64,000 bases of DNA from Eubacteriales bacterium (GCA_045661325.1 JAZRFK010000060.1:258-64257); one strand, 5' to 3'; positions 14,198-64,000 are shown, counted from the stretch's first letter. The notes: a model not told the origin generated them from the letters alone. A program made the numbers and translations.

Positions 14198-16459
14198 TCA
14201 GCTTGGCTTTTTTGCGCTTCCCTTTTCTATATAGGGCGCGCCGCCGCACTCGGCCACAAAGGAGACGATTTCCTCTGCCGAGAGCCTATCCGCAACGAAG
14301 GATTTTTTTAAGAGGGCGGTTGGGATATAGGCGTCATATTTATCGTATATCGGACGCTCTGCATCAGAAACGAGAGAGGAAAGCTCTATTCCCTCCGCTT
14401 TGATTTTTTCGCAAAGCGTTTTTATGAGAGTATCCATTTTGCCGTAATCCACGTGAAAGGAAATATAGCAGCACCCCTGATGCTCAATATGACTGATGCC
14501 GAGGGCTGCGGCGTTTGCCGAGAGATAGCGGCGCAGGGTTTGGAAGGGTCGCGTGCCAAGCCAAGGGAAAAGGACGGCGGTGGTTTGGCTTAACGGGATA
14601 AGAACGGACTCGCCAAGCCCCATGCGGCGCGCAAGCGCGCGCGCCGTGCGAAGACGGGCAAGTGCGTTTGGCGCAAGGTAGGGATATTCCACATCCTCTA
14701 AAAGCACGCGGAGCATCCGCTGCAAAACGCGGGTATGAATTTCACCGCTTCCGCCAGGCCAGGAGACCGCCATTTTGCCCTCCACCGCCTTAACGAAGAG
14801 AAGCCGCTTGGCAACGTCTGCCTCCACAACCTCCCAAACGCGTCCTGCCAGGGCAAAGCGCTCGCCCGGTGGAACGGGATTGGCGATGGTGCCGATTTCG
14901 CCCGAGGCGGCGCGCACGGCATACTCATCGGGCTCTTGAAAGACGGCGTAAAAGCGGAAATTGCCCACGAGCCTTTCTCCCGAAAGACCAACGATGAGGC
15001 CGCCCTCGTCCATCAGCTCCAAATAGCCGCCATTTACCATGGAGATAAGCAGCTCACGGTAGGTTTCCTTATCAATAGAGGAAAGAGGAGGCAAGGACAA
15101 GACACGCTCTGCCAGCTCCTTGGGGGAAAGCTCGCCCGAGGAGGCCAAAATACTGAGGGTTTGGTGGAAAGCCAAGGAAAGCGGTAATTGCTTTGGCCTT
15201 GGCATTTCAATAAAGCGCTCCTCGCTATACAGCTGCACGAGTGCAATTCCGCGCAAAAGCTCCCAAGGCAAAAGCTCGGGAAGGGTTGCGTTAGAGGGGG
15301 GCGCATCCTCACGAAAGACCATCAGCATTTCGGGAGGCTGACTGCGCCTGCCCGAACGGCCGAGGCGCTGCAAAAATGCGGAGACGGAATGGGGAGAGTT
15401 AAGCTGCACAACGCGCGAAAGCTTGCCAATATCAATGCCAAGCTCCATACTGACCGTGGCACAGGTAACGATATTTTCCTCATCCATCTTCATCCTCTGT
15501 TCTGCATCGTTACGGATGGCCGCAGAAAGATTGCCGTGATGGATATAAAAATTGTCTCTTTCGCCGCGCATATGGGCAATTTGCCTCATAGACGCGGTGA
15601 CAAGCTCCGTTTCCTCTCGGGAATTGGAAAAGACGAGACATTTTTGCCCCTTTACCGCCTCATAAATATAGGCAAAGGCCTCATCCGTTGTCGAGGGAGC
15701 TTGGGAAAGGGGGATATGCTCTTCCTTTTCCTTCGCCGCGCTTTGCGCGTAAAAATGCGAAAAGCCAAGTCGCCAGGTGAGCTTTCCCTTTTGGATATCG
15801 GGACAAACGGTGGCGCGGCCGCTACCGCTTCCGAGCCAGGCAGTTGCCGCCAAAACATCGCCAATGGTGGCAGAAAGACCGATACGGCGCGGAAAAACTC
15901 CCGTCAAGCGCGAAAGCCGCGAAAGCAGGCAAAGCACCTGCCCGCCTCTATCGCTGCTCGGCAGGGTATGCACCTCGTCCAGCACCACGTAGCGAAGATG
16001 GGAAAAGAGCCTTATCAGCTCGTGGGAGCGATGGATAAAAAGACTTTCGAGGGATTCGGGCGTGATTTGCAAGACGCCGCTTGGGTGCGATAGGAGCTTT
16101 TGCTTTTGCGAGGCAGGCACATCCCCATGCCAACGGTAAAGCGGAATATGGGAGGGCTCAAGCAGCTCGGTTAAACGAATATACTGGTCATTGATAAGGC
16201 TTTTCAGGGGCGCGATATATAAAACCTCCACCCCTTCCTCTCTGCTTGGCCTTTCATAAAGCTCCGTAAGGATTGGAAAAAAGACCGCCTCGGTTTTTCC
16301 CGATGCCGTGGGCGAGGCAAGAAGCAGGTTCTCGTCACCGTCAAAAATGACTCTGCCGGCCTCTAACTGTACGGCGTTCAGCTCCTGCCATCCGTGCGTA
16401 TAGATAAACTCACGGATAAAGGGAGCATAACGCGAAAAAAGAGTGCTTGCATCCCACAT
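14198..16459 (-). CDS. Lhr-like DEAD/DEAH-box (SF2) helicase; third gene of the TerB/ATPase/helicase triad (Shango SngC-like, from memory)
   Basis: Motif I ASPTASGKTEA, motif II VVLDEVH, motif VI QRLGRSGRR, and a long C-terminal winged-helix/DEAD-associated-like region. 753 aa. Confidence 0.8.
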   Translation of the reverse strand: MWDASTLFSRYAPFIREFIYTHGWQELNAVQLEAGRVIFDGDENLLLASPTASGKTEAVFFPILTELYERPSREEGVEVLYIAPLKSLINDQYIRLTELLEPSHIPLYRWHGDVPASQKQKLLSHPSGVLQITPESLESLFIHRSHELIRLFSHLRYVVLDEVHTLPSSDRGGQVLCLLSRLSRLTGVFPRRIGLSATIGDVLAATAWLGSGSGRATVCPDIQKGKLTWRLGFSHFYAQSAAKEKEEHIPLSQAPSTTDEAFAYIYEAVKGQKCLVFSNSREETELVTASMRQIAHMRGERDNFYIHHGNLSAAIRNDAEQRMKMDEENIVTCATVSMELGIDIGKLSRVVQLNSPHSVSAFLQRLGRSGRRSQPPEMLMVFREDAPPSNATLPELLPWELLRGIALVQLYSEERFIEMPRPKQLPLSLAFHQTLSILASSGELSPKELAERVLSLPPLSSIDKETYRELLISMVNGGYLELMDEGGLIVGLSGERLVGNFRFYAVFQEPDEYAVRAASGEIGTIANPVPPGERFALAGRVWEVVEADVAKRLLFVKAVEGKMAVSWPGGSGEIHTRVLQRMLRVLLEDVEYPYLAPNALARLRTARALARRMGLGESVLIPLSQTTAVLFPWLGTRPFQTLRRYLSANAAALGISHIEHQGCCYISFHVDYGKMDTLIKTLCEKIKAEGIELSSLVSDAERPIYDKYDAYIPTALLKKSFVADRLSAEEIVSFVAECGGAPYIEKGSAKKPS

Positions 16460-16495
16460 AGTCTTCTCCTTTCCGTTTTTTTGAAAAATTCCGAT

Positions 16496-17836
16496 TTAGA
16501 TAACGATGTCCTGTATACGAATGGTTCCGCCCGTTTCGCTCTTGGGAGCACCCGCCGAGGAGGCGCCAACGGCGCTCTCCAAAAGACGCGCGAAGGTGGC
16601 CTCCTTATTGGCGTGTAATATCGAGAGAATAGCCAAATAGTCGCGAATCATTTCACGCGGGGTTAAAAGCTCGGCACTTCCTGCGCGCTTGAGGGCAACA
16701 GAGAGAAACTGCTTTTGCTCCTCCTCTGTGATAGGAAGGGGGGCTTCCGTTTTTTGTGCAAAAACCTTGCCCACGCGGGAAAGCAGAGCATATAGCTCGT
16801 TTTCCGATAAAGAGCGCAGGCGCAAAACAGGGGCGGCATAATTGACAAACTCGCCCATTGCAAAGCGACTGTCAGCCAAGCGACTGCGTAAAGCCTCATA
16901 GCTGTAAAGCCCTCTTTGCGTATCCTCCAAGAACTGCGGCGTTCCGCCGAAGAAGATGGCAAGGCCCTCAACTCTTCCCTGCAAGGCATCGTTAAAGATG
17001 GTCAACAGCTTTTCATAATTGGCCTCACGGGAAATACGGTTGACGATTTTATAAAGCACGATACATTCATCAATATAGAGAATGAGGCCCGCATAGCCGA
17101 TAAAACGGGAAAAGGCGGCCCAGAGCTTGATAAAATCGTACCAGTTTTCGTCCGTAATAATGGTGGTTATCGGAAAGCCAAGGGCGGCCTTGGCTTCGGT
17201 TTTGGTGGAAAACTCGCCGCGAAGCCAGCGCAGGCAAGCCGTTTTTCTCTCTTCGTTTTCCTCCACCGTGGCCAAAAAATATTCAGACAGGACACGAGAA
17301 AAATCAAAGCCGCCGACTTCATTTTCAAACTGCTCGATTTGGGAAAAGATTTTCCTTCTGACAAGGGCGGCAAAGTCCTCCGATTCGGGCAAAACACCCT
17401 GCTCGGCCAAGGAAGAGGCCACGCTGTTATAATAGCGGGAAAGAACCAGCGGCAACGCATTTCCTTCGGGAGACGCCTTGGACGCCAGGTTATGCATCAG
17501 CTCACGGTAGGTAGCCACGCCGCCGCCCTTACCGCCGCAAAGCCTTCTTTGGTCGGCAGACAGATCAACGTCGGCACACAAAAAGCCTCTTTCCAAGGCA
17601 TAGCCTCGGACAAGCTGCATCAAAAAGGTTTTACCGCTTCCGTACCGCCCAATCAGAAAGCGAACGGCCGCACCGCCCTCCTTCACGTTTTGCAGGGAGT
17701 CCAAAAGCGCGGCAATTTCCTCCGTTCTGCCAATGGCGATATAGGGAGCACCGACACGCGGCACAACACCCGCAGAAAGAGCGGAAACCAAATTATTTAA
17801 GATGCGTTTGGGGATTTTTACTTCTGCTTCACTCAT
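16496..17836 (-). CDS. DUF2791 / BrxD-like P-loop ATPase (Shango SngB-like, from memory)
   Basis: Walker A GRYGSGKTF and Walker B LILYIDEC. 446 aa. Its start overlaps the stop of the upstream TerB gene by 8 nt. Confidence 0.75.
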   Translation of the reverse strand: MSEAEVKIPKRILNNLVSALSAGVVPRVGAPYIAIGRTEEIAALLDSLQNVKEGGAAVRFLIGRYGSGKTFLMQLVRGYALERGFLCADVDLSADQRRLCGGKGGGVATYRELMHNLASKASPEGNALPLVLSRYYNSVASSLAEQGVLPESEDFAALVRRKIFSQIEQFENEVGGFDFSRVLSEYFLATVEENEERKTACLRWLRGEFSTKTEAKAALGFPITTIITDENWYDFIKLWAAFSRFIGYAGLILYIDECIVLYKIVNRISREANYEKLLTIFNDALQGRVEGLAIFFGGTPQFLEDTQRGLYSYEALRSRLADSRFAMGEFVNYAAPVLRLRSLSENELYALLSRVGKVFAQKTEAPLPITEEEQKQFLSVALKRAGSAELLTPREMIRDYLAILSILHANKEATFARLLESAVGASSAGAPKSETGGTIRIQDIVI

Positions 17837-19433
17837 CTTGCGTATAGGATAACAAAAGATCCTCTACCTCCTCTTGATAATCGAAAATGGGAACGATGCC
17901 GTCATCGCTCACCTCCAACACCACGTCTCCCATGGTGTCGCTGAAATAGTCGTTAATTTCCTCGGCCACAACGGTCATTTCTGTGGCAAGGGCAGGAATG
18001 GGCTTGCTATGAAAAAGAGCGTCCAAAAGGCGAAGCGCGCCCTTGCTCAAGGGAGCGTTATCGGCGGCAGCGATGGGAAGTGCTTCCGACGTCTGCTCCT
18101 CCAATAGCTCCTCTTCAACCAAAAGCCGCGTGTTTTGCCAAGAGTCGTTCTCAATTTTTTCGGCCTCCTCGGCAGAAAAGGAGACGCTCGGCGGGTCATA
18201 CTGGCTTTCGTACTCGGGGCGCATCGGGGCTTCCTTCGGCGCCTCGGGCAAGACGCTATCGAAATACGCATCGATAATCGACTTGACAGCTGCTTCCAAA
18301 TCCTTAACCATCAACCGACTTTTGACGTGAAAATGCATACGCAGGCGATTTTCGGCATATTTGACGGCCGCCGTTATTTGCTCCGATAAGCCAATCGAGG
18401 CAAAGAGAGGCTGATACACAAGCTCGATGCGATACCGACGCGCGCCTGCAAAGACGGCGCCGCAAAAGGCCTCTCTCGTTTTGGTGGTTATCAGATTTTT
18501 TTCAAGAGAAGCGCGCGCATTGATGTGCGAAAAGACCAGCGAAACAGCCTTTTCGATATGGAAAAGATGGGGCGCAACGTCTGTGCGAAGCGCAAAGCGG
18601 CTTTTATACGGATTATGCCGCGACAGGTGAGAAATAAGGGGGGCGCTTTCCTCTGTTTTGGCCTCTGCCAAGGCGCCCAAATAAAACTCCCGAAGGACGT
18701 TTGCCGAAAGAATTTCGGAAAAGAAGGGCGCAAGCACGCAAGAGGGGAGGGGCACGCGATACAGAAGGCAATAATCGGCCAGCCAATCCGTCATATATTT
18801 ATCCATCTGAGGAAAGGTGGCGCGATACGCCGCCCATACCCTTGCCAGAACCAAGACGTTTTCCTTTGGACTGCTATCGCGCGGCGCGTTTAAAATCTCA
18901 TAAATGAGAAGCAGAATATAATTCTTATCTGCCTTGATATAATCGCCGCGATAGACGGAATCGCGAAAATACAGATAATACGCCCGTTGCTCCGACGAGA
19001 GCTGAGAATACTGGGGAGAATAGCTGAAAAAGGGAACGAAGGGCGCAGGCTCTGCTCTTCCCAAAAGCGAGAGAGATTCTGCGGCCGCCTCACCAAAGCC
19101 GTGATAAAAATGAAAGGGTGAGGTCGCCTCATAAATTCGCACCTTTCGCAAAAAGGGGTGAGCCTCGGGGGCGTATTCAGAGATAAGCCGCACTTCTGCC
19201 TGCTCCTTGGGCAAGCTTTGCCCTTGCTCGCCCTTTGGCGCGCCCAAAGCGTCTTCGCTCTGTTGCTCAACAGGAACGGCAACCGAATAGACACCGCTCG
19301 GCGCTAACTCGGACGAAGGGGGCTCAAAAGAGGGCGTTTCGGGCATAGCGGCAGAAGAAGGCGCCTTTTGGCCTTGGCGCGTCCTTTTGGGCAAAAGAGA
19401 GGCTATATCCCAAAAATCATCAATTTCTGCCAT
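17829..19433 (-). CDS. TerB-N / TerB-C domain protein (Shango SngA-like, from memory)
   Basis: The segment FVPFFSYSPQYSQLSSEQRAYYLYFRDSVYRGDYIKADKNYILLLIYEILN is the typical TerB_N signature. The N-terminus is disordered and Pro/Ser-rich. 534 aa. Confidence 0.7.
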   Translation of the reverse strand: MAEIDDFWDIASLLPKRTRQGQKAPSSAAMPETPSFEPPSSELAPSGVYSVAVPVEQQSEDALGAPKGEQGQSLPKEQAEVRLISEYAPEAHPFLRKVRIYEATSPFHFYHGFGEAAAESLSLLGRAEPAPFVPFFSYSPQYSQLSSEQRAYYLYFRDSVYRGDYIKADKNYILLLIYEILNAPRDSSPKENVLVLARVWAAYRATFPQMDKYMTDWLADYCLLYRVPLPSCVLAPFFSEILSANVLREFYLGALAEAKTEESAPLISHLSRHNPYKSRFALRTDVAPHLFHIEKAVSLVFSHINARASLEKNLITTKTREAFCGAVFAGARRYRIELVYQPLFASIGLSEQITAAVKYAENRLRMHFHVKSRLMVKDLEAAVKSIIDAYFDSVLPEAPKEAPMRPEYESQYDPPSVSFSAEEAEKIENDSWQNTRLLVEEELLEEQTSEALPIAAADNAPLSKGALRLLDALFHSKPIPALATEMTVVAEEINDYFSDTMGDVVLEVSDDGIVPIFDYQEEVEDLLLSYTQDE

Positions 19434-34008: not shown

Positions 34009-34216
34009 AAAAAAGACAGCCATATGGCTATCCCACAATACTCCCAAGAATATCAAGGATAGCTCTCCGCATTTCTGCGACAACAGTGCAAATCTTATTT
34101 GAACTGCCAGCAAGACGCTTGCCACAACGCTCACTTCGGCACCCGACCCCTTTCCCACGCGGCTTTGGCAGCCGTTCTTTCGCGGTACTCTTTGTAAGGT
34201 GCGCCTCTATCTCCAC
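34009..34216 (-). promoter_or_regulatory. lysine riboswitch (L-box) with terminator, leader of dapA-dapB-ddh-lysA
   Basis: The minus strand reads GGAGATAGAGGCGC...GAGTA...GGGAAAGGGGTCGGGTGCCGAAG...GCTGGCAG...CACTGTTGTCGCAG...GGAGAGCTATCC. The hairpin GATAGCCATATGGCTGTC plus TTTTTT follows. The conserved L-box blocks (AGAGGnGC, GAGTA, GAAAGGGG, GCCGAAG) are in the right order. Confidence 0.8.
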
Positions 34217-34239
34217 TGTTTTACCAGTTTGATGGACTT

Positions 34240-47951: not shown

Positions 47952-48228
47952 GATCATACACCCCAAATTCGACACAGACCTACACGCGTTAACCGCACAC
48001 TCTGCTCCGAACAGGCGCCCCTGTGGCACATGGAAAGCTCCGCTTAATGCTGCTTAGTTCCCTACCTGACATGGTTCACGGTTCCCCATTGCACAAGACC
48101 CATTCTTCAACACAGAGGAATGCGGCGCAGACCGCACAAGCATGCGCCTCCTGAGGAGAATTCGGCCCCGCTACAGCGGATTTCGGGTACAAGGCTCCGC
48201 TACTGCCCCGCTTAGTATGACCTTTTCC
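47952..48228 (-). ncRNA. ffs: signal recognition particle RNA, large (Bacillus-type, with Alu domain)
   Basis: The minus strand reads ...CTAAGCGGGGCAGTAGCGGAGCCTTGTACC...CCATGTCAGGTAGGGAACTAAGCAGCATTAAGCGGAG... This is collinear with B. subtilis scRNA as remembered (GTCAGGTCCGGAAGGAAGCAGC domain IV). The 5' GGTCATAC pairs with the 3' GTATGATC. It lies immediately upstream of dnaX, as usual in Firmicutes. The ends are approximate. Confidence 0.8.
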
Positions 48229-51289: not shown

Positions 51290-51685
51290 ATGAACATAAA
51301 AAGAGGAGATATTTATTACGCCGATTTAAGTCCCGTTGTGGGAAGCGAGCAGGGGGGAATCCGCCCTGTTTTGATAGTCCAGAATGACGTTGGCAACCGA
51401 TACAGCCCCACCGTTATTGCAGCCGCCATTACGAGCCGCATGGGAAAAACCAAGCTTCCCACGCACATTGATATATACGCAGACGAGGTGGGGCTTGCCA
51501 AGGACTCGGTTGTTTTGCTTGAACAAATCCGCACCCTTGACAAGCGCCGCCTGCGAGAAAAGATGGGACACCTTGACAGTGCCGCCATGGAAAGAGTGAA
51601 CGGTGCTATATCCGTCAGCTTCGGTCTTGTTTCCGAGGACGAACGAAACACCCGCGTGTATACAGGTCACGGAAGCCTTGGCTAA
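51290..51685 (+). CDS. mazF: PemK/MazF family endoribonuclease toxin
   Basis: ORF 51203..51685 trimmed to ATG 51290 (AAAGGAG upstream). [42 protein letters not shown] is near-identical in pattern to EndoA/MazF. Confidence 0.85.
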
Positions 51686-56144: not shown

Positions 56145-56175
56145 AAAGGAACAGGCGCCAGCCTGTTCCTTTTTG
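56145..56175 (+). terminator. rho-independent terminator after araC-family gene
   Basis: Stem AGGAACAGGC / GCCTGTTCCT (56147-56156 / 56161-56170) followed by TTTT. Confidence 0.8.
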
Positions 56176-56252
56176 ATTGGAACGAAAATAATCGTAATTG
56201 CCTGCTCGCAACGAAAACAAAAATTTCACCGACAAAAAGCGACTTTTCACTA

Positions 56253-56281
56253 TTGCAAATTCACCCAAAACGTGTTATACT
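56253..56281 (+). promoter_or_regulatory. sigma-A promoter of the TIR-LRR cluster leader
   Basis: TTGCAA (56253-56258), 17-nt spacer ending in TGt (extended -10), TATACT (56276-56281). Confidence 0.55.
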
Positions 56282-56465
56282 GTACTCGTACACAAATTGC
56301 ACAATCGGTTTTTTGAAGGTTTTCCTTTTTCAAAGGGGTAATATTTTCTGCGTTCCCAATTTCTTTGAGCCTTGGCAAAAATGCAGGTTCCTCGAAATTG
56401 GGTACATATAGGCAAAAACCTTTTCTGATTCGTTTGTGTGACAGCAATCGGAGCTTACGTTTTTC

Positions 56466-56498
56466 GGTGTGCATAACTTCGGTTGTGCACACCTTTTT
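56466..56498 (+). terminator. strong intrinsic terminator/attenuator 20 nt upstream of the first TIR-LRR start codon
   Basis: GGTGTGCATAAC uucg GTTGTGCACACC forms a 12-bp stem (one G-U pair) with a UUCG tetraloop, followed by TTTTT. No ORF lies between the promoter and this hairpin. Confidence 0.75.
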
Positions 56499-56518
56499 GT
56501 TTATGAAGGAGAAGAATT

Positions 56519-58486
56519 ATGAGATTTCCTGTTGCATATGAAGGGGAAGAACCGTATATTTTTGTTAGTTATAGACACCTTGATACGGAAACGGTTTACA
56601 AAATTCTCAGCCAGATGCAAAAAGATGGCTATCGATTCTGGTATGACAAAGCCATCCACGCTGGCGAAGAATGGCGTGAAGAAATTGCTACGCATATAGA
56701 ATCGTGTAAAGTTTTTATAGCTTTTGTTTCTAAAAGTTACCTTTTGTCTAAAGAGTGCAAAAAAGAACTTGAATATGCTAACGATCAAGAAAAAACAATC
56801 TTGTTGATTTATCTACAGGAAGTAAAACAATCTGGTAGTATGGGAATGCTAATGAATCGCATTCAAGCGATTTATAGAAACAAGTATAATGATGAAACGA
56901 ACTTTTATGAAGCGCTATATGCGGCAAAAGGAATAACGACTTGTCGCTCTTCTCTTCCTCCGGCACCTAAAGAAAAAGAAGAGGTTGCAAGCAAATATTT
57001 AAAGTTTGCGTTAGACAAAAAAAGAGGAGAATATGCTGTTATTGGAATCAAAAAAAAGGAAGCATATACTCCTACTGTTATCCCCAAACACATTATGAGC
57101 GAAAAAGTCGTTATTCCTAAAAATTACAAAGGTAAGCCTGTTACAAGCATTTGCGACAAGGCATTCTTTCTTTGTACAGGTTTAACAGACATTGTCATTC
57201 CTGATAGTGTAGTGAGTATAGGCAATTACGCTTTTTATGGTTGTACAAGCTTAACGTCTATTTTGATCCCCGAAAATGTCACTAATATCGGTTTGTGCGC
57301 TTTTCATTACTGCACAGCACTTACGACAATTAAATTTAATCATAACAGCCGATTAAACAGCATAGGTGTGGCGGCATTTTCTGAGTGTCTTTCACTTGCT
57401 TCCATTACCATACCCGATAGTGTCACAAAGATTGGGGATCGCGCTTTTAGGAAATGTCAAAGTTTATCTTCCTTTACCATTCCAGAAAATGTAAAATCCA
57501 TTGGCCTTGACGCTTTTGAAGGATGCGCTAATTTAGAAACTATTTATTTTAAAGGTCGAAAAAGCCAATGGGAAACAATAAACAAGGGTGAAGAATGGGG
57601 CAAGCAAAAAATTATTTTCTGGACATCCGTAATGACAGAAAAAAATATCGTTCCTTGCTTGAACTTTAAGTTTGACCGTAAAGCAAATGGCTATACTTTA
57701 ATCGGAATCACGGACACATCTGTCACGAAAATTACGATTCCCGCTACACATCAAGGTGTACCTGTAATCAGCATTGACGCTTCAGCTTTCTATAATTGTA
57801 CAAATTTAAAATCCATTACACTCCCTAATAGTGTGGTGAACATTGGCGAAAATGCTTTTTACAACACCGCCTATTATAATGATGCTGCGAACTGGAAGAA
57901 CTCCTTGCTTTATATTGGAAAGCATTTAATTAGAGCCAAAAAGTCCATATTGAACATAACAACCATCAAAGAGGGCACGTTAAGCATTGCATCCCAAGCG
58001 TTTCGTGACTGCACAAATTTAAATGCAGTCGTTCTCCCCGATGGTATAGTTAACATAGGTTCCTCTGCGTTTTCCGGCTGCACACAGCTGAAAAGCATAG
58101 ATATTCCTTATACTTTAACAAGTATTGGATATATGGCTTTTTATTGCTGTATGAATTTGTCACAAATAACTTTTCCTGACAATCTCAAAAACATAGGCTT
58201 TGCCGCATTCGCGGAATGTGCGAATCTAACCTCTTTATCCCTTCCTTTTGGGATAAAGAGCATTGCACCGCGAACGTTTGATAATTGCAAAAATTTAACA
58301 TCGATCACGATTCCTCAAAGTGTCACCGGAATTGGTTCAAAAGCCTTTAACAATTGCGTAAAATTAACTAATATTTATTACAAAGGAACAACAGCAGAAT
58401 GGGCAACAATTTTCAAAATGGATGATTGGAACGAAAACACTTGCAAATATACTATCTTTTGTTCCGATGGTACATTAGAAAAATAA
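56519..58486 (+). CDS. TIR domain / BspA-type leucine-rich-repeat (LRR_5) fusion protein, paralogue 1 (two LRR modules)
   Basis: RBS GAAGGAG lies 7 nt upstream. Residues 1-135 show TIR hallmarks (PYIFVSYRHLD, YRFWYD, VFIAFVS, ECKKELEYA with Glu83). The rest is ~23-aa repeats L.SI.IP.SV..IG..AF..C. No signal peptide or TM segment. Confidence 0.85.
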   Translation: MRFPVAYEGEEPYIFVSYRHLDTETVYKILSQMQKDGYRFWYDKAIHAGEEWREEIATHIESCKVFIAFVSKSYLLSKECKKELEYANDQEKTILLIYLQEVKQSGSMGMLMNRIQAIYRNKYNDETNFYEALYAAKGITTCRSSLPPAPKEKEEVASKYLKFALDKKRGEYAVIGIKKKEAYTPTVIPKHIMSEKVVIPKNYKGKPVTSICDKAFFLCTGLTDIVIPDSVVSIGNYAFYGCTSLTSILIPENVTNIGLCAFHYCTALTTIKFNHNSRLNSIGVAAFSECLSLASITIPDSVTKIGDRAFRKCQSLSSFTIPENVKSIGLDAFEGCANLETIYFKGRKSQWETINKGEEWGKQKIIFWTSVMTEKNIVPCLNFKFDRKANGYTLIGITDTSVTKITIPATHQGVPVISIDASAFYNCTNLKSITLPNSVVNIGENAFYNTAYYNDAANWKNSLLYIGKHLIRAKKSILNITTIKEGTLSIASQAFRDCTNLNAVVLPDGIVNIGSSAFSGCTQLKSIDIPYTLTSIGYMAFYCCMNLSQITFPDNLKNIGFAAFAECANLTSLSLPFGIKSIAPRTFDNCKNLTSITIPQSVTGIGSKAFNNCVKLTNIYYKGTTAEWATIFKMDDWNENTCKYTIFCSDGTLEK

Positions 58487-58576
58487 TTTTGTCTTTCTTG
58501 TTCTATGGCCAAACGGGAATAAGAATTGCTTTATTTATCTATAAAAAAGAAAAAGTAATAGGAGCAAAGAAGTTAT

Positions 58577-60406
58577 ATGAAAAATCATCCCATCTATGAA
58601 GAAATAGCGCCTTTCGCATATGTCAGTTACTCGCATCTTGATAAAGAGCTTATTTGTCCAATTCTCCGTCAGATACAAATTGATAGTTACCGTTTTTGGT
58701 GTGATGAAGGTATCTATGTCGACAAGAAATGGGATGAAACAATTGCAGAAAAAATAGATACTAGTGAAATTTTTCTTGCTCTCATTACAGATAATTATCT
58801 AGAATCTGGCAATTGCAAAGACGAACTAAATTACGCAAGAGACTTGAACAAAGAGATTCTTTTGATTTTTTTACAAGATATTACTCCATCTGGCAATCAG
58901 GCTATTCGAATGGGGCAAATTCCAGCGATTTTCAAAAGCAAGTATCAATGTGAAAAAGATTTTTACACAGAACTCTATTCGCTAAAAGCACTCAACCGCT
59001 GTCATTCTTCCAAAGACTCTACAAACAATTACTTAATTTTTTCACTAAATAAAGAAACAGAAGAATATGAAGTTGAAGGCGTAAAAGACAGAGATATTGA
59101 AGAAATTATCATTCCCTCCTCTTATCAAGAAAAGCCCGTCACGAGCATTGCCAACCACGCCTTCTGCAATTGTGAAGATTTAACCTCTGTTATACTTCCT
59201 GACACTATTAAAACCATCGGTGCCAACGCCTTTGCTTATTGTAAAGTCCTAACATCCATTATCATTCCTGATAGTGTGGTTAGTATTGACCGGGGAGCTT
59301 TTGGGGGCACAGAATTGATTTCCATTACTACGCCTTGCTTCAACGAAGCAAGGACAGCAGATGATCATTTGGGGTATATTTTCGGTGCGTACTCTTTTTC
59401 TGATAACGGCGAATGCGTGCCCCCCTCTCTTAAAACTGTCATCCTTACAAAGGGAACACAAATCGCCCCTTATGCATTTAATGGCTGCAAAAATTTGACC
59501 TCCATCACAATTCCTGACAGTATTATCAGCATTGGTAAAAGCGCCTTCAGTGATTGCGATAGCTTGACCTCCATCACCCTGCCGGATAGCATCGCCAGCA
59601 TCGGCGAGTATGCCTTTAATAATTGCAAGAGCCTAACATCTGTTACCATCCCTAACAATGTTACCAGTATTGGCAAAGCCGTTTTCGGTAATTGTGATAG
59701 CTTGACCTCTATCACTATTCCAGATAGCGTTACCAGCATCTGTGCGTGCGCCTTCGAAGCTTGCACAAGCTTGACTTCTGTCACCATTGGAAATGCCGTT
59801 ACTGCTATCGATGACTATGCTTTTAATGGCTGCACCAACCTGACATCTTTGACTGTAAAGCAAGGAAATCCCAAACATCATAGCGCAGGCAACTGTTTAA
59901 TTGAAACTGCTGCTAAAACCTTGGCGGCAGGTTGTAAAAGCAGTGTTATTCCCACGGATGGTAGCGTTATCACAATCAAAGATCGTGCCTTCCGAGGTTG
60001 CGAAGGCTTGACTGCTATTACTATTCCAGACGGCGTTACCAGTATCGGTAGTAACGCCTTTGCCGTTTGCACGGGTTTAACCTCTATAACTATTCCCGAC
60101 AGCGTTGCCAGTATCGGTTATGGCGCCTTCTCTGCTTGCACAAGCTTGACCACTATCACCATCCCGAACAGCGTTACCAACATCAGCAAGTGGCTCTTTG
60201 CCGGTTGCGCAGGACTGACCTCTATCATCATTTCTAACAGCGTTACCAACATCGGCGAGTATGCATTTGAACGTTGCGAAAATTTGACCACCATCCACTA
60301 CAATGGCACTATGGAAGAATGGAACGCTATTTCCAAAGGAAATGATTGGAATTATAACACTGGCAAGTATACCGTCTATTGCACGGACGGAAATTTAATG
60401 AAATAA
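58577..60406 (+). CDS. TIR domain / BspA-type LRR fusion protein, paralogue 2
   Basis: The same architecture (FAYVSYSHLD, YRFWCD, IFLALIT, NCKDELNYA with Glu83) followed by about 15 LRR_5-type repeats. It ends with the cap motif HYNGTMEEWNAISKGNDWNYNTGKYTVYCTDGNL. Confidence 0.85.
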   Translation: MKNHPIYEEIAPFAYVSYSHLDKELICPILRQIQIDSYRFWCDEGIYVDKKWDETIAEKIDTSEIFLALITDNYLESGNCKDELNYARDLNKEILLIFLQDITPSGNQAIRMGQIPAIFKSKYQCEKDFYTELYSLKALNRCHSSKDSTNNYLIFSLNKETEEYEVEGVKDRDIEEIIIPSSYQEKPVTSIANHAFCNCEDLTSVILPDTIKTIGANAFAYCKVLTSIIIPDSVVSIDRGAFGGTELISITTPCFNEARTADDHLGYIFGAYSFSDNGECVPPSLKTVILTKGTQIAPYAFNGCKNLTSITIPDSIISIGKSAFSDCDSLTSITLPDSIASIGEYAFNNCKSLTSVTIPNNVTSIGKAVFGNCDSLTSITIPDSVTSICACAFEACTSLTSVTIGNAVTAIDDYAFNGCTNLTSLTVKQGNPKHHSAGNCLIETAAKTLAAGCKSSVIPTDGSVITIKDRAFRGCEGLTAITIPDGVTSIGSNAFAVCTGLTSITIPDSVASIGYGAFSACTSLTTITIPNSVTNISKWLFAGCAGLTSIIISNSVTNIGEYAFERCENLTTIHYNGTMEEWNAISKGNDWNYNTGKYTVYCTDGNLMK

Positions 60407-60481
60407 GCTTCAAGGATTGACATTTTTCATAGCTGAACTGTTATAAAAACAAATTAATGCCGCACTAAGAAGGAGAAGACA

Positions 60482-62524
60482 ATGAAAGAACCTCTTGCAT
60501 ATGAGGGCAAAGAGCCTTACATATTTATCAGTTATGCCCATCTTGACAAAGAAATAGTTTATCCTATTCTCAACCGATTAAAGGATGATAATTATCGTTT
60601 TTGGTACGATCAGGCGCTTTATGCCAGTGAAGAATGGGATGAAGCTATTGCGGCTAAAGCAGAAGCAAGTGAGATTTTTCTTGCTTTCATTACCAAAAAT
60701 TATCTTGATTCCGATAATTGCAAGGATGAACTAAAATATGCAAGAGATTTGAACAAGACAATCTTCATAATTTATCTGCAAAACACTGCCCTTTCCGGCG
60801 GCATGGCGATGCGAATGAATCGCATCCAAGCAATTTATAAAACTGCATATCAGAATGAAGAAGATTTTTATACGGCTCTGTATGCACACGCGCCCAAAGG
60901 GATAGAGTCCTGTCATTCCGCCACCCCGGAAGAGCACGAGAATACGATTCTGAATTTACAACTGGATGAAAAGACAGGAGAATATGTCGTTGCAGGCGTT
61001 ATTGACAAAACCATTGAAAGAGTCGTGATTCCTTCCACATATCGAGGCAAGCCTGTTACAAAAATTAATGCAGCTGCTTTTGAAAATTGCGAAAAACTTT
61101 CTTCCGTTTTCATCCCAGATAGTATTAGCGTTATTGGCGGTGGTGCTTTTTGGCAATGTACAAGCCTCCCCGTTGTCACCATTCCTGAGAGTGTTCTTGT
61201 TATTGAAAAATATGCTTTTGCTTATTGTACAAGCCTAACCTCTATCACTATTCCTGCTAACGTAATGAGTATCGGCCAAGGAGTTGTTGCGGGTTGTATA
61301 AGTCTTGCTACCATTATTGTAGACGAAAAAAATCCAATTCACAAGGGCGCAAACAATTGTTTGATAAATTCAAATACCAAAACCCTGATTTCTGGTTGCA
61401 AAAATAGTGTCATTCCCACAGACGGCAGCGTTGTACTTATAGGAGAGGGCGCTTTTCGAGATTGCAGCGGATTGATTTCTGTATCTATCCCCGATAGCGT
61501 AGTAGCAATTGATTCACTAGCTTTTTGTCGTTGCACGAGATTAAAGTCGGTTTCCTTTGGCTCTAACAGTCGACTAACAAAAATCGGCGTGTCTTCTTTC
61601 GCTCACTGTGCAGATTTAACCGCCTTCAACTTTCCAAGTAGTGTAACAAATATAGAGAACGACGCATTCGATTCCTGCAAAAGTTTAACCACCATTAATG
61701 TTCCTAGTAAAGTAACAAACATTAATTCGAGTGTCTTCAGATGGTGCACAAATTTATCTTCTGTTCTCCTTCCCGATGGTTTAACGAGTATTGGAGAGTC
61801 CGCCTTTGTGCATTGCGGAAGCTTGACTTCTATTGCTATTCCTAGCAACGTTTCTACCATTTGTAATGGAGCTTTTTGGGATTGCTCAGCGCTGACTTCT
61901 GTTACCTTTGGTGCCGACAGTCAATTAACCACTATTGAAGAAAACGCTTTCGCGCATTGCAGCAACTTGAATTACATCCTTATTCCTAACAGTGTTACTT
62001 TTATTGGTTCAAATGCCTTCGAAGAAAGTGGGAAAGCGGACTTGCTTGTATTTCGCTTTTACGGCACAGAAAAGCAGTGGGCAAATATAAAGAAGGGCAA
62101 AGAGTGGGATCTGAAAAAGGTGTTTTTTTGTCTGCCTTCGGAAATCAGTATCTCTTCAAGTTGTTGTTTTAGATTTTCGCTGGATAAGAAAAAAAATGAA
62201 TATACATTTGCTGGTGTCATAAATTGGGCTGGCGCAGAAATTGTGATTCCTCCCACCTATCAAGCAAAACTCGTCACCAGCATCGGCAAAAAGGCTTTTT
62301 ATAAATGTTGTGGTTTTAGTAGCATCACAATTCCTAATACCATTACCCATATTGGCACCAAAGCTTTAATGGGGTGTAAAGGCTTGTCCGTGATTTATTT
62401 TCAAGGCACAGTTGAGCAATGGAAATCTATAAAAAAAGCCCCTAAGTGGGATGAGCAAACTCATCGCTACGATGTTTTCTGTATTGACGGAAATATTGCA
62501 ATGTTTAAAGGAGAGTCAACATGA
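60482..62524 (+). CDS. TIR domain / BspA-type LRR fusion protein, paralogue 3 (two LRR modules)
   Basis: PYIFISYAHLD, YRFWYD, IFLAFIT, NCKDELKYA with Glu83. The LRR repeats are interrupted by an internal cap (FYGTEKQWANIKKGKEWD), followed by a second short LRR module and cap. Confidence 0.85.
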   Translation: MKEPLAYEGKEPYIFISYAHLDKEIVYPILNRLKDDNYRFWYDQALYASEEWDEAIAAKAEASEIFLAFITKNYLDSDNCKDELKYARDLNKTIFIIYLQNTALSGGMAMRMNRIQAIYKTAYQNEEDFYTALYAHAPKGIESCHSATPEEHENTILNLQLDEKTGEYVVAGVIDKTIERVVIPSTYRGKPVTKINAAAFENCEKLSSVFIPDSISVIGGGAFWQCTSLPVVTIPESVLVIEKYAFAYCTSLTSITIPANVMSIGQGVVAGCISLATIIVDEKNPIHKGANNCLINSNTKTLISGCKNSVIPTDGSVVLIGEGAFRDCSGLISVSIPDSVVAIDSLAFCRCTRLKSVSFGSNSRLTKIGVSSFAHCADLTAFNFPSSVTNIENDAFDSCKSLTTINVPSKVTNINSSVFRWCTNLSSVLLPDGLTSIGESAFVHCGSLTSIAIPSNVSTICNGAFWDCSALTSVTFGADSQLTTIEENAFAHCSNLNYILIPNSVTFIGSNAFEESGKADLLVFRFYGTEKQWANIKKGKEWDLKKVFFCLPSEISISSSCCFRFSLDKKKNEYTFAGVINWAGAEIVIPPTYQAKLVTSIGKKAFYKCCGFSSITIPNTITHIGTKALMGCKGLSVIYFQGTVEQWKSIKKAPKWDEQTHRYDVFCIDGNIAMFKGEST

Positions 62525-63738
62525 AAAAAGCCTTTTGGGCCTTCGTGCTAATTTTGATATTCGTTTTCACTTTTTCTTCATGCGATACTGGAACCAACGG
62601 CGGTGACAATCAGCCTCACATCCACACTTACGGAGAATGGAGCACTGTAAAAGACGCTACCTGCACCGATGATGGTCTTAAAGAGCGCATTTGCGATTGT
62701 GGTGAAAAGGAAACTGAAGTCATTCCCACAATAGTTTGTGAAGGTTTGGCGTACGAGATAAACGATGATGGGGTATCTTGTACCATTACCGGAATCGGCA
62801 AGTACACCAATACGGAACTTGTTGTCCCTGCTATTATTGATGGATATATCGTAATGAACATCGGTGAGGCCGCCTTTTTTAATTGTTCCCACCTTACAAG
62901 CGTCACTATTCCCGATAGCGTGAAGAGCATAGGCAAGAGCGCCTTCTCTAGTTGCACCAGCCTTACGAGTGTCACTTTTAACGAAAACAGCCAACTGATG
63001 AGTATCGGCGAGAGAGCCTTCTCTAGTTGCACTAGCCTAATGAGTATCACCTTCCCTGATAATGTAACGAGCATCAACAAGTATGCCTTCCAGAATTGTG
63101 CCAACCTTATTAACATCACCTTTAGCGAAAGCAGCCAGTTGACGAGTATCGACCAAGGGGCATTTGGTATTTGCACCAGCCTGGCAAGCATTACCATTCC
63201 AAAAAATGTGAGCAATATCGGTGCTAATCCCTTCTCTGGTTGCTTAAACCTTATGAGCATTACAGTAGCGAGTGACAACACCACATATCATAGCATGGAA
63301 AACTGCCTGATTGAAACCGAGACAAAAACCTTGATAATAGGATGTAAAAACAGCATTATCCCCACGGATGGCACCGTGACGAGTATTGGTGAATGGGCAT
63401 TCTATGATTGCTCCACCCTGATGAGCATCGCTATTCCCGACAGTGTGACCACCATTAACGAGGGCGCTTTCTCTGGTTGCTCAGGTCTTAGAAGTATCAC
63501 CATCCCGGATAGCGTGACGACTATCAACAGTTGGCTCTTCAACGACTGCACTCGCCTTGATCGTATCACGATTTCAGGTAAAATCACTAGCATCGGTAAC
63601 AGAGCCTTCTGTAAAAATAGGGCAGCTATCATCTTTTCCGGTACAATGGCACAGTGGCATAATATAAGTAAGGAAGAGGGCTGGAACATGAACGCTGTCC
63701 TCAATGTCTTTTGCGCCAACGGAACTGTAACAGAATAA
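62521..63738 (+). CDS. LRR (BspA-type) lipoprotein, translationally coupled to the third TIR-LRR gene
   Basis: Its ATG overlaps the upstream TGA (ATGA 62521-62524), with AAAGGAGAG upstream. Signal peptide with lipobox-like FTFSSC. One H..Y..W....DATCT..G....CDCGE Cys module, about 12 LRR repeats, and the cap FSGTMAQWHNISKEEGWNMN..NVFCANGTV. Confidence 0.85.
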   Translation: MKKAFWAFVLILIFVFTFSSCDTGTNGGDNQPHIHTYGEWSTVKDATCTDDGLKERICDCGEKETEVIPTIVCEGLAYEINDDGVSCTITGIGKYTNTELVVPAIIDGYIVMNIGEAAFFNCSHLTSVTIPDSVKSIGKSAFSSCTSLTSVTFNENSQLMSIGERAFSSCTSLMSITFPDNVTSINKYAFQNCANLINITFSESSQLTSIDQGAFGICTSLASITIPKNVSNIGANPFSGCLNLMSITVASDNTTYHSMENCLIETETKTLIIGCKNSIIPTDGTVTSIGEWAFYDCSTLMSIAIPDSVTTINEGAFSGCSGLRSITIPDSVTTINSWLFNDCTRLDRITISGKITSIGNRAFCKNRAAIIFSGTMAQWHNISKEEGWNMNAVLNVFCANGTVTE

Positions 63739-63757
63739 TACAGCGGATCCAACCAAA

Positions 63758-63785
63758 CCCCGGAGAAATCTCCGGGGCTTTTTTC
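63758..63785 (+). terminator. rho-independent terminator ending the TIR-LRR operon
   Basis: Stem CCCCGGAG / CTCCGGGG (63758-63765 / 63770-63777) followed by CTTTTTT. Confidence 0.85.
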
Positions 63786-63904
63786 ATGCAAGCACAAGGC
63801 AGGATATGGAAAGAAGAAAAAGGGACCTGCTCACTATTCGTGAGGAAGTTTCCTTTTCACTTGTGCGACGCAGTTGCTTTTTTCTTTTTCAAAGCAATTT
63901 TTCT

Positions 63905-64000
63905 TTAGCAAATTTTTGCTTTGTCGGTTAATAGCGTTTTTTCGTCGAGTGTCACGATTTTTTCAGCGTGTACCGTGATGTCGCTATTGCCGCCGAATAC
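63905..64000 (-). CDS. 3' end of an unidentified minus-strand gene continuing beyond the window
   Basis: The minus frame reads VFGGNSDITVHAEKIVTLDEKTLLTDKAKIC then TAA (63907-63905). Only 31 codons are visible, so this is weak. Confidence 0.25.
   Translation of the reverse strand, partial: VFGGNSDITVHAEKIVTLDEKTLLTDKAKIC

Follow-up and report, generated by a model that had tools for sequence, protein, structure and literature searches.

We analyzed a four-gene operon at positions 56519-63738 of a 64,000-nucleotide stretch of DNA from a Eubacteriales bacterium (GCA_045661325.1 JAZRFK010000060.1:258-64257; this whole stretch is hereafter called the window). [quoted passage not shown] We give roughly even chances to the reading that the locus is an acquired operon producing three cytoplasmic sensor-effectors, that is, ligand-gated TIR NADases, together with an exported LRR lipoprotein. 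The locus is an uncharacterized member of the known class of sensor-fused TIR effectors; within a very large family, known from sequence and left unstudied, it is a rare case. The operon comprises the following features:

56519-58486, + strand: paralogue 1, TIR and LRR_5 domains, 655 amino acids (open reading frame [ORF] call, Pfam)
58577-60406, + strand: paralogue 2, TIR and LRR_5 domains, 609 amino acids (ORF call, Pfam)
60482-62524, + strand: paralogue 3, TIR and LRR_5 domains, 680 amino acids (ORF call, Pfam)
62521-63738, + strand: gene 4, LRR_5 lipoprotein, 405 amino acids (ORF call, Pfam)
62521-62583, + strand: signal peptide and lipobox of gene 4, up to Cys21 (sequence reading)
56765-56767, 58823-58825 and 60728-60730, + strand: codons of Glu83, the predicted catalytic Glu, in paralogues 1, 2 and 3, respectively (alignment)

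TIR domains, repeats and a predicted NADase site

A preliminary description of the window had proposed this gene arrangement, and the coordinates, lengths and shared plus strand of its four ORFs were all exact. The coupling of gene 4 to gene 3 that it described was also confirmed, with the stop of gene 3 and the start of gene 4 overlapping as ATGA at 62521-62524. A ribosome-binding site of the AGGAG type precedes every gene of the operon.

To assess the N-termini, which had been read as TIR domains, we searched them with profile hidden Markov models. Pfam TIR_2 (PF13676; gathering cut-off 28 bits) matched all three proteins, with 73.5, 49.8 and 64.6 bits and a start at residue 14-15, so these are genuine TIR domains. 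The hallmark motifs at residues 14-22 and 38-43 read as claimed, as did Glu at residue 83 and its codons in 3/3 paralogues. The TIR domains of paralogues 2 and 3, judged earlier to be about half identical, share 54% of their residues, compared with 57% for paralogues 1 and 3 and 43% for paralogues 1 and 2.

Searching the PDB with a profile of the three TIRs gave Cat1, a CRISPR-associated TIR NADase, as the best sequence match (E=2.6e-9); the same profile also matched plant TIRs, SARM1/TIR-1, MyD88 and Toll-like receptors. In the profile alignment, S17, H20, D43, S77 and E83 pair with Cat1 S7, N10, D33, S68 and E74, which line its NADase site, and Ala substitution of N10, D33, S68 and E74, among others, abolished Cat1 toxicity (PMC12162218). 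Glu83 is likewise aligned with the Glu in the plant CLDEL motif and the one in SARM1/TIR-1, which bears out the earlier proposal that it is equivalent to the catalytic Glu. All five residues are invariant in an alignment of 24 family TIR sequences, and in a full-length alignment of 99 family sequences S77 and E83 were the sole invariant columns, the Glu being present in 99/99. An AlphaFold model of the TIR, built from the 24 family sequences, had a predicted local distance difference test score (pLDDT) of 88.8 and five alternating strand/helix elements. Its top Foldseek matches were all TIRs, namely SPARTA TIR-APAZ (the best), TIR-1/SARM1, AbTir and plant TIRs. Judged by residues and fold, the TIR domains are probably NAD-cleaving.

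The C-terminal parts had been described as BspA-type LRRs of about 23 residues, and both profiles and structures bore this out. Pfam LRR_5 (PF13306; gathering cut-off 27.7 bits) matched proteins 1-3 with 344, 320 and 285 bits and protein 4 with 242 bits. The unit of 23 residues follows the consensus LTSITIPDSVTxIGxxAFxxCxx and occurs in 33 strict copies (9, 11, 9 and 4 in proteins 1-4, respectively), with high entropy at the x positions, so that variation falls on the exposed positions. Over its C-terminal 495 residues, protein 1 matched BspA-type LRR structures from Bacteroides ovatus (4FS7, E=2e-52) and a Faecalibacterium prausnitzii cell-surface protein (4GT6), the matches to these two spanning E=1e-52 to 1e-48. 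Further matches were to Eubacterium ventriosum 4H09, Treponema pallidum TpLRR and pneumococcal PcpA (all PDB entries matched: 4FS7, 4GT6, 4H09, 6MLX and 4CP6), and the full-length protein 1 model gave the same LRR structure matches. Protein 1 consists of a TIR (residues 1-145) followed by two LRR_5 modules (about 160-345 and 380-655), each separately capped. Its full-length AlphaFold model (pLDDT 74) shows the TIR and two LRR_5 solenoids joined by disordered linkers, with no further domain.

The TIR-to-LRR linker measures only about 15-60 residues, and no NTPase or P-loop family matched the operon proteins in Pfam, NCBIfam or PADLOC, in agreement with the claim that no NB-ARC, NACHT or STAND ATPase lies between TIR and LRR. 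Likewise, hydropathy and ORF starts upheld the claim that proteins 1-3 have neither a signal peptide nor a transmembrane helix. We found no hydrophobic segment in them beyond the LRR strands (maximum 19-residue Kyte-Doolittle means 1.57, 1.48 and 1.86). Their ORFs begin at the first start codon past a stop and thus cannot be extended upstream, and the TIR beta-A strand is reached as early as residue 13-14, which leaves no room for an N-terminal signal peptide. The export signal and surface anchor expected of a BspA-like adhesin are missing from proteins 1-3 and present only in gene 4, whose product begins with MKKAFWAFVLILIFVFTFSSC, a fit to a lipoprotein signal with Cys21. Gene 4 therefore encodes the same repeat type behind a lipoprotein signal peptide, as had been proposed. 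Between the lipobox and the LRRs, at residues ~22-70 (window 62584-62740), protein 4 also contains a Cys/His-rich stretch, HIHTYGEWSTVKDATCTDDGLKERICDCGEKETEVIP, which had no Pfam match and may be a small metal-binding module.

The LRR parts of paralogues 1-3 are mutually only 31-36% identical. That of gene 4 is nearest to the LRR of paralogue 2 (48% identity over 319 amino acids), and G+C content at third codon positions (GC3) is raised in these two, at 0.46 for the paralogue 2 LRR and 0.52 for gene 4 versus 0.30-0.35 elsewhere in the inserted DNA. This closeness and higher GC3 suggest recombination or exchange between exported and TIR-fused LRR modules.

A clostridial family of TIR proteins with exchangeable modules

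A first word-indexed homologue search with one TIR returned a single match, and an exhaustive profile search revealed the family. The three-TIR profile matched 29,035 representative clusters with E<=1e-3, of which 6,754 reached E<=1e-10 and 1,027 reached E<=1e-30. This family is unnamed, being called at most 'TIR domain-containing protein' in public records, and has a TIR of the form 'YIFISYAH...NCKDEL' with conserved S17, Y18, H20, D22, W41, D43, S77 and E83. The window TIRs carry all of these positions and form a divergent branch, in which YRFW replaces YRVW and the GIDPGTEWDE motif is missing. All 80 loci from species-representative genomes (80/80) came from gut, rumen or faecal Clostridia; hosts of the family include Oscillospiraceae, Lachnospiraceae, Acutalibacteraceae, Saccharofermentans and Acetatifactor.

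Among the 99 nearest representatives, TIR_2 was found in 99 and was accompanied by LRR_5 (10), Sel1 (5), MORN (5), TM2 (5), FtsK-gamma (3), WD40 (2) or DUF6273 (2). A second search added proteins fused to FHA as well as numerous stand-alone TIRs about 145 residues long, and a DnaA ATPase is a further partner. We retrieved 151 proteins (the 150 nearest representatives and P0001), 50 of which hold 2-7 tandem TIRs in one chain of up to 2,023 residues (examples are P0022, P0027, P0132, P0002, P0008 and P0009), and 63 of which (about 40%) have a hydrophobic segment after the TIR. At the level of loci, a transmembrane helix follows the TIR in 100 of the 187 family ORFs in 165 loci. The family thus combines a constant, predicted catalytic TIR with a freely exchanged C-terminal module, so that 'TIR + LRR' is one draw from a repertoire and not a stand-alone invention. 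Architectural diversity of bacterial TIR groups has also been noted in a general survey of TIR domains, for example TIR with TPR in actinobacteria. The stand-alone TIRs of this subfamily are very numerous (for example, P0184-P0266 and L162 1090-1527) and may be adaptor or amplifier partners. A 69-residue TM2-domain protein (L081 2456-2665) directly follows the TIR-LRR_5 gene P0021; together with the TM2 fusions in 5/99 relatives, this hints that TIR and TM2 membrane proteins are functionally linked.

Tandem arrays of the family's genes occur often, with four genes in L030, three in L027 and two in many loci. In L012, L014 and L030 they occupy the same chromosomal position across species in 2, 2 and 4 copies, respectively, and in L043, L050 and L052 they again share a position, with proteins that differ in length and domain content. 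For such syntenic genes, the comparison indicates diversification in place rather than mobility.

The TIR-LRR_5 architecture itself is found again in 10 or more of the 99 nearest representatives. Soluble TIR-LRR_5 proteins with N- and C-terminal LRR caps like those of the window include P0021, P0024, P0110, P0143, P0056 and P0032, and L162 carries, in tandem, an LRR gene, a 145-residue TIR and a 981-residue TIR-LRR_5 protein. Membrane-spanning versions also occur, both as TIR-transmembrane-LRR_5 proteins (L050, 11104-12552; L052, 11196-12458) and as tandem pairs of TIR-transmembrane-LRR_4/LRR_8 proteins with canonical LRRs (L117, 9995-14307; L145, 1861-6313). TIR fusions in the family thus draw on two unrelated LRR classes, some with a transmembrane helix and some lacking one. 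Because runs of Lys/Arg immediately precede the helix in the membrane-spanning relatives, their TIR is predicted to be cytoplasmic and their LRR outside, which would make them a bacterial version of the Toll-like-receptor layout in inverted order. Three soluble paralogues with a coupled lipoprotein were not seen elsewhere in the family sample. The preliminary description had presented the direct TIR-LRR fusion as an undescribed system. Indeed, our literature searches turned up no account of a bacterial TIR-LRR system without an NTPase, but the architecture is not unique, as it recurs in the family.

Insertion of the operon and its leader

Comparison with related genomes located the approximate borders of an insertion that carries the operon, and scans of the window identified candidate regulatory elements:

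56150-63900, + strand: inserted islet of about 7.7 kb, leader and four genes, approximate borders (comparison with relatives)
56253-56281, + strand: candidate promoter at the leader start, TTGCAA, 17-nt spacer, TATACT, with a TG extension (consensus scan)
56285-56518, + strand: structured 5' leader, possible attenuator (terminator scan, fold z-score)
60417-60447, + strand: candidate internal promoter upstream of paralogue 3, TTGACA...TGtTATAAA (weak)
63758-63777, + strand: intrinsic terminator at the operon end, 8-bp GC-rich stem and T-run (terminator scan)
63905-64000, - strand: 3' end of the GH28 orthologue, right border of the insertion (C-terminal peptide matches the L166 GH28)

The GC3 values of the three TIR-LRR genes (0.33, 0.42 and 0.35) and the lipoprotein gene (0.52) compare with 0.53-0.64 in ten flanking genes. 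An exact look-up of window proteins 1, 3 and 4 found no contig; we took the downstream context from members of the 90%-identity cluster of the neighbouring GFO oxidoreductase. Three related Clostridia contigs (L166, L167 and L168) encode a GFO oxidoreductase that shares at least 90% identity with that of the window, and in 3/3 of them a convergent GH28 gene comes straight after AraC, without the operon. The window gene order is mostly kept in L166 and L168, comprising PBP5 (L166 only), recR, ybaB, dnaX, a sigma factor, DUF378, mazF, an acyl-ACP thioesterase, an S1-domain protein, GFO and AraC. DNA homology between window and relatives ends just past the AraC stop codon, and the window closes with a cut-off minus-strand gene, the orthologue of GH28. 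Because AraC and GH28 adjoin in the relatives, homology breaks between them and GH28 resumes at the window end, about 7.7 kb (~56150-63900) has been inserted here.

We found no integrase or transposase at the insertion, and a search of its borders for target-site duplications or terminal repeats turned up no more than two 9-mers, which were in the wrong order. At 90% identity, each of the four proteins is a singleton in a set of about 15 billion proteins, bar one 57-residue fragment, and in GTDB species representatives and JGI metagenomes the closest TIRs show about 50% identity. The host is an uncultured gut member of the Clostridia, whose PGI has 93-96% identity to proteins annotated 'MAG: Clostridia bacterium'. 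Compositional and comparative evidence thus points to an operon that was horizontally acquired and is foreign to its host. A phage-borne origin was rejected, as only two distant TIR matches were found among 2.9 million viral contigs.

Strong terminators were found by the scan only 5' of gene 1 (56466-56493) and 3' of gene 4 (63758-63777). Beyond the operon the neighbour is convergent and not on the same strand, the next gene after the terminator being GH28. The leader (fold z-score -4.4) ends in a 12-bp hairpin at 56466-56493 with a T-run, abutting the ribosome-binding site of gene 1. No Rfam family matched the leader. A homologue of 75 nt with 77% identity lies at L031 5321-5393, in a metagenome-assembled genome of another member of the Eubacteriales, upstream of a gene for a large secreted subtilisin-like protease; it keeps the CTTCGG loop and has a compensatory change in the stem. 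With two copies of the element found in all, the hairpin may be an unknown attenuator or cis-regulatory element. The letters of an internal promoter claimed before paralogue 3 were correct (60417-60422 and 60439-60447), but their spacing is 19 nt, compared with the usual 16-18, and the promoter scan did not list it; such a promoter is a possibility.

Proposed mechanism and competing explanations

Taking Cat1, SARM1, AbTir and plant TIRs as models, we propose that each N-terminal TIR would be an NAD+-cleaving enzyme, inactive as a monomer, and that the two C-terminal BspA-type LRR solenoids would bind a ligand. The ligand, most simply multivalent or polymeric, would bring TIRs together into a composite two-TIR active site, and the assembled TIRs would deplete NAD+ or make an ADP-ribose-derived signal. 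In SARM1, AbTir and plant TIRs, the composite active site lies between associated TIRs. The active site of Cat1, too, is formed between associated TIR domains (PMC12162218). Since their LRR parts have diverged so far, the three paralogues would provide three ligand specificities. Enzymatic activity, ligand-induced oligomerization, the kind of ligand bound and the biological role are what we infer here; the setting would most likely be either biotic conflict, with sensing of phage or other invaders, or cell-cell and environment sensing. Insertion, paralogue diversification and modular sensors fit a role in conflict or recognition in the broad sense.

Several observations weigh against ligand-gated TIR NADases. 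A motif search of the 160 gut TIR domains that were assayed in PMC9092222 found no member of this TIR subfamily, and a conserved Glu at this position does not in every case go with reported NADase activity (PMC7075850). How the domains are placed relative to one another in the full-length model is not reliable (predicted template modelling score 0.39). BspA-type LRRs are otherwise known from surface proteins, which makes a cytoplasmic ligand an assumption, and the co-translated exported LRR lipoprotein has a role outside the account given by the model. No ThsA-like or other NAD-signal effector occurs in the operon or among the 52 other ORFs of the window. Finally, PADLOC and Pfam showed the 110 neighbours at 16 family loci, a small sample without a formal background, to be mostly housekeeping genes.

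Known systems share parts of this design. Thoeris ThsB resembles the locus in having a bacterial TIR with a catalytic Glu and several diverged TIR genes side by side. The matches to ThsB were weak, however, at no more than 29 bits in PADLOC (far below family level) and 19.9 bits for Pfam ThsB_TIR against a cut-off of 21.2; membership was considered and not adopted. In addition, there is no ThsA (SIR2, Macro or SLOG) in the operon or window, the operon is bounded by a terminator and the convergent GH28 gene, and some 500 residues of LRR follow the TIR in the same chain. Cat1 (CARF-TIR), TIR-SAVED, TIR-STING and SPARTA TIR-APAZ likewise combine a sensor with an oligomerization-dependent TIR NADase in one chain; Cat1 is the best PDB sequence match, with its active-site residues conserved here, and the SPARTA TIR is the best fold match. 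By contrast, the sensor here is a protein-binding LRR solenoid and not a nucleotide-binding or Argonaute-associated domain, and the operon has no upstream signal-generating partner. Plant TIR-NB-LRR and bacterial TIR-STAND proteins (Avs, bNACHT) share the N-terminal TIR, C-terminal LRR, cytoplasmic location and multiple paralogues, whereas the proteins here lack an NB-ARC, NACHT or STAND ATPase and their LRR is of the 23-residue BspA type.

Toll-like receptors also join LRR to TIR without an NTPase, and the membrane-spanning relatives resemble them further in being single-pass proteins with the LRR outside and the TIR in the cytoplasm. The Toll-like architecture of LRR ectodomain, transmembrane helix and TIR is absent from proteins 1-3, which have no such helix, and is present in inverted order in the L050, L052, L117 and L145 proteins. 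The TIR here is N-terminal and, given its conserved catalytic residues, looks like an enzyme and not a scaffold, and we found no evidence that the architecture as a whole goes back to a common ancestor. BspA-type LRR_5 surface proteins (Tannerella forsythia BspA, PcpA, TpLRR and 4GT6) have the same repeat family and fold, and gene 4 is a typical exported member, but proteins 1-3 lack an export signal and carry an N-terminal TIR. Tcp-type TIRs (BtpA/TcpB, TcpC, AbTir and TirS) are bacterial TIR_2 domains with NADase-type residues; they differ in having a coiled-coil N-terminus and a C-terminal TIR (AbTir and BtpA sequences), compared with a TIR followed by LRRs here, and the TIR subfamilies are not the same, the motif search having found none of this one in the assayed set.

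The preliminary description had favoured phage defence. In its narrow form, a dedicated anti-phage abortive infection system whose LRRs would sense structural or replication proteins of phage and whose TIR NADase would kill or arrest the cell, this is a narrower version of our proposal and a possible but doubtful one. TIR NADases similar in sequence and fold are the effectors of Thoeris, SPARTA, Cat1, CBASS and Pycsar, the operon is an accessory and apparently acquired insertion, and its diverged paralogues recall Thoeris loci, which carry multiple ThsB genes. The TIR-LRR_5 relative P0024 also adjoins a type I restriction HsdR-like gene. The surroundings give this explanation no support, however. 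The neighbours at family loci are genes such as ATP synthase, PHP polymerase, MatE and ABC transporters, with only generic PADLOC matches (ATPase, kinase), and housekeeping genes flank the window operon as well; family genes sit at conserved syntenic positions across species and not in mobile defence islands; and the Shango system of the window lies 37 kb away. PADLOC has no model for the architecture and, as the preliminary description had expected, called no known system at the operon, with weak TIR-domain matches in proteins 1-3 and none in protein 4. The 16 loci gave no support for an association of the family with defence genes. Because neighbours are mostly housekeeping genes and PADLOC matches are generic, the neighbourhood is neither for nor against a defence role, and phage defence stays plausible without contextual support.

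A broader explanation, which we hold tentatively and at less than even odds, is that gut and rumen Clostridia possess a large, diversifying repertoire of NTPase-less TIR receptors in which clustering of TIRs by ligand would be the whole of transduction. The ligand module would be cytoplasmic, as in the triple operon, or extracellular behind one transmembrane helix, following Toll-like-receptor logic, and the operon would be an acquired cytosolic cassette of three specificities with a matching extracellular LRR. It is rather improbable that the family consists basically of transmembrane receptors for the envelope or environment, with the soluble TIR-LRRs and the LRR lipoprotein as a split or derived version that would serve one and the same signalling pathway, for example through TIR-TIR association with membrane paralogues. 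The frequency of transmembrane helices after the TIR (100/187 locus ORFs, about 40% of representatives), the TIR-transmembrane-LRR proteins of both LRR classes, the closeness of the gene 4 and paralogue 2 LRRs, the translational coupling of gene 4 to gene 3 and the leader-hairpin homologue upstream of a secreted protease gene in another genome all favour it, but proteins 1-3 have no membrane anchor, the window encodes no membrane-bound TIR paralogue and nothing physically links the lipoprotein to the cytoplasmic proteins. Very unlikely, finally, is the host-interaction module offered earlier as an alternative, in which released TIRs would mimic host adaptors, as TcpB/BtpA, TcpC and TirS do, and the LRR_5 parts would be BspA-like adhesins. 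Surface proteins of gut and oral bacteria typically carry BspA-type LRRs, the organism is of the gut or rumen Clostridia type and gene 4 is clearly surface-exposed. Yet proteins 1-3 have no recognizable export signal, the catalytic residues, invariant across the family, argue for an enzyme rather than a pure mimic, basic residues before the transmembrane helix place the TIR of membrane-bound relatives in the cytoplasm, and many relatives have intracellular partners (FtsK-gamma, DnaA ATPase, FHA).

Coupling of LRR to TIR without a STAND ATPase is the logic of animal Toll-like receptors and has no characterized bacterial counterpart. If the operon proteins are ligand-gated NADases, a minimal 'repeat sensor + TIR' design operates in bacteria, and they would be simple single-chain models for ligand-driven assembly of a TIR active site. 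As the family is very abundant in gut and rumen Clostridia and many of its proteins point outward, it could amount to a major means of sensing in the microbiome, so far unexplored, and could be a source of NAD-derived gut metabolites (compare PMC9092222). If the proteins are inactive or ordinary relatives of surface proteins, the locus is another accessory islet.

Apart from the operon, we observed a complete Shango system in the window at 14198-19433 (- strand), composed of three genes:

14198-16459, - strand: SngC (E=9e-229)
16496-17836, - strand: SngB (E=3.5e-154)
17829-19433, - strand: SngA (E=1.5e-40)

A MazF/PemK-type toxin gene is located at 51290-51685 (+ strand) and holds the same position in L166 and L168. 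The window also contains a lysine riboswitch at 34052-34217 (- strand, 79 bits) and, adjoining dnaX, a large bacterial signal recognition particle RNA at 47954-48220 (- strand, 175 bits).

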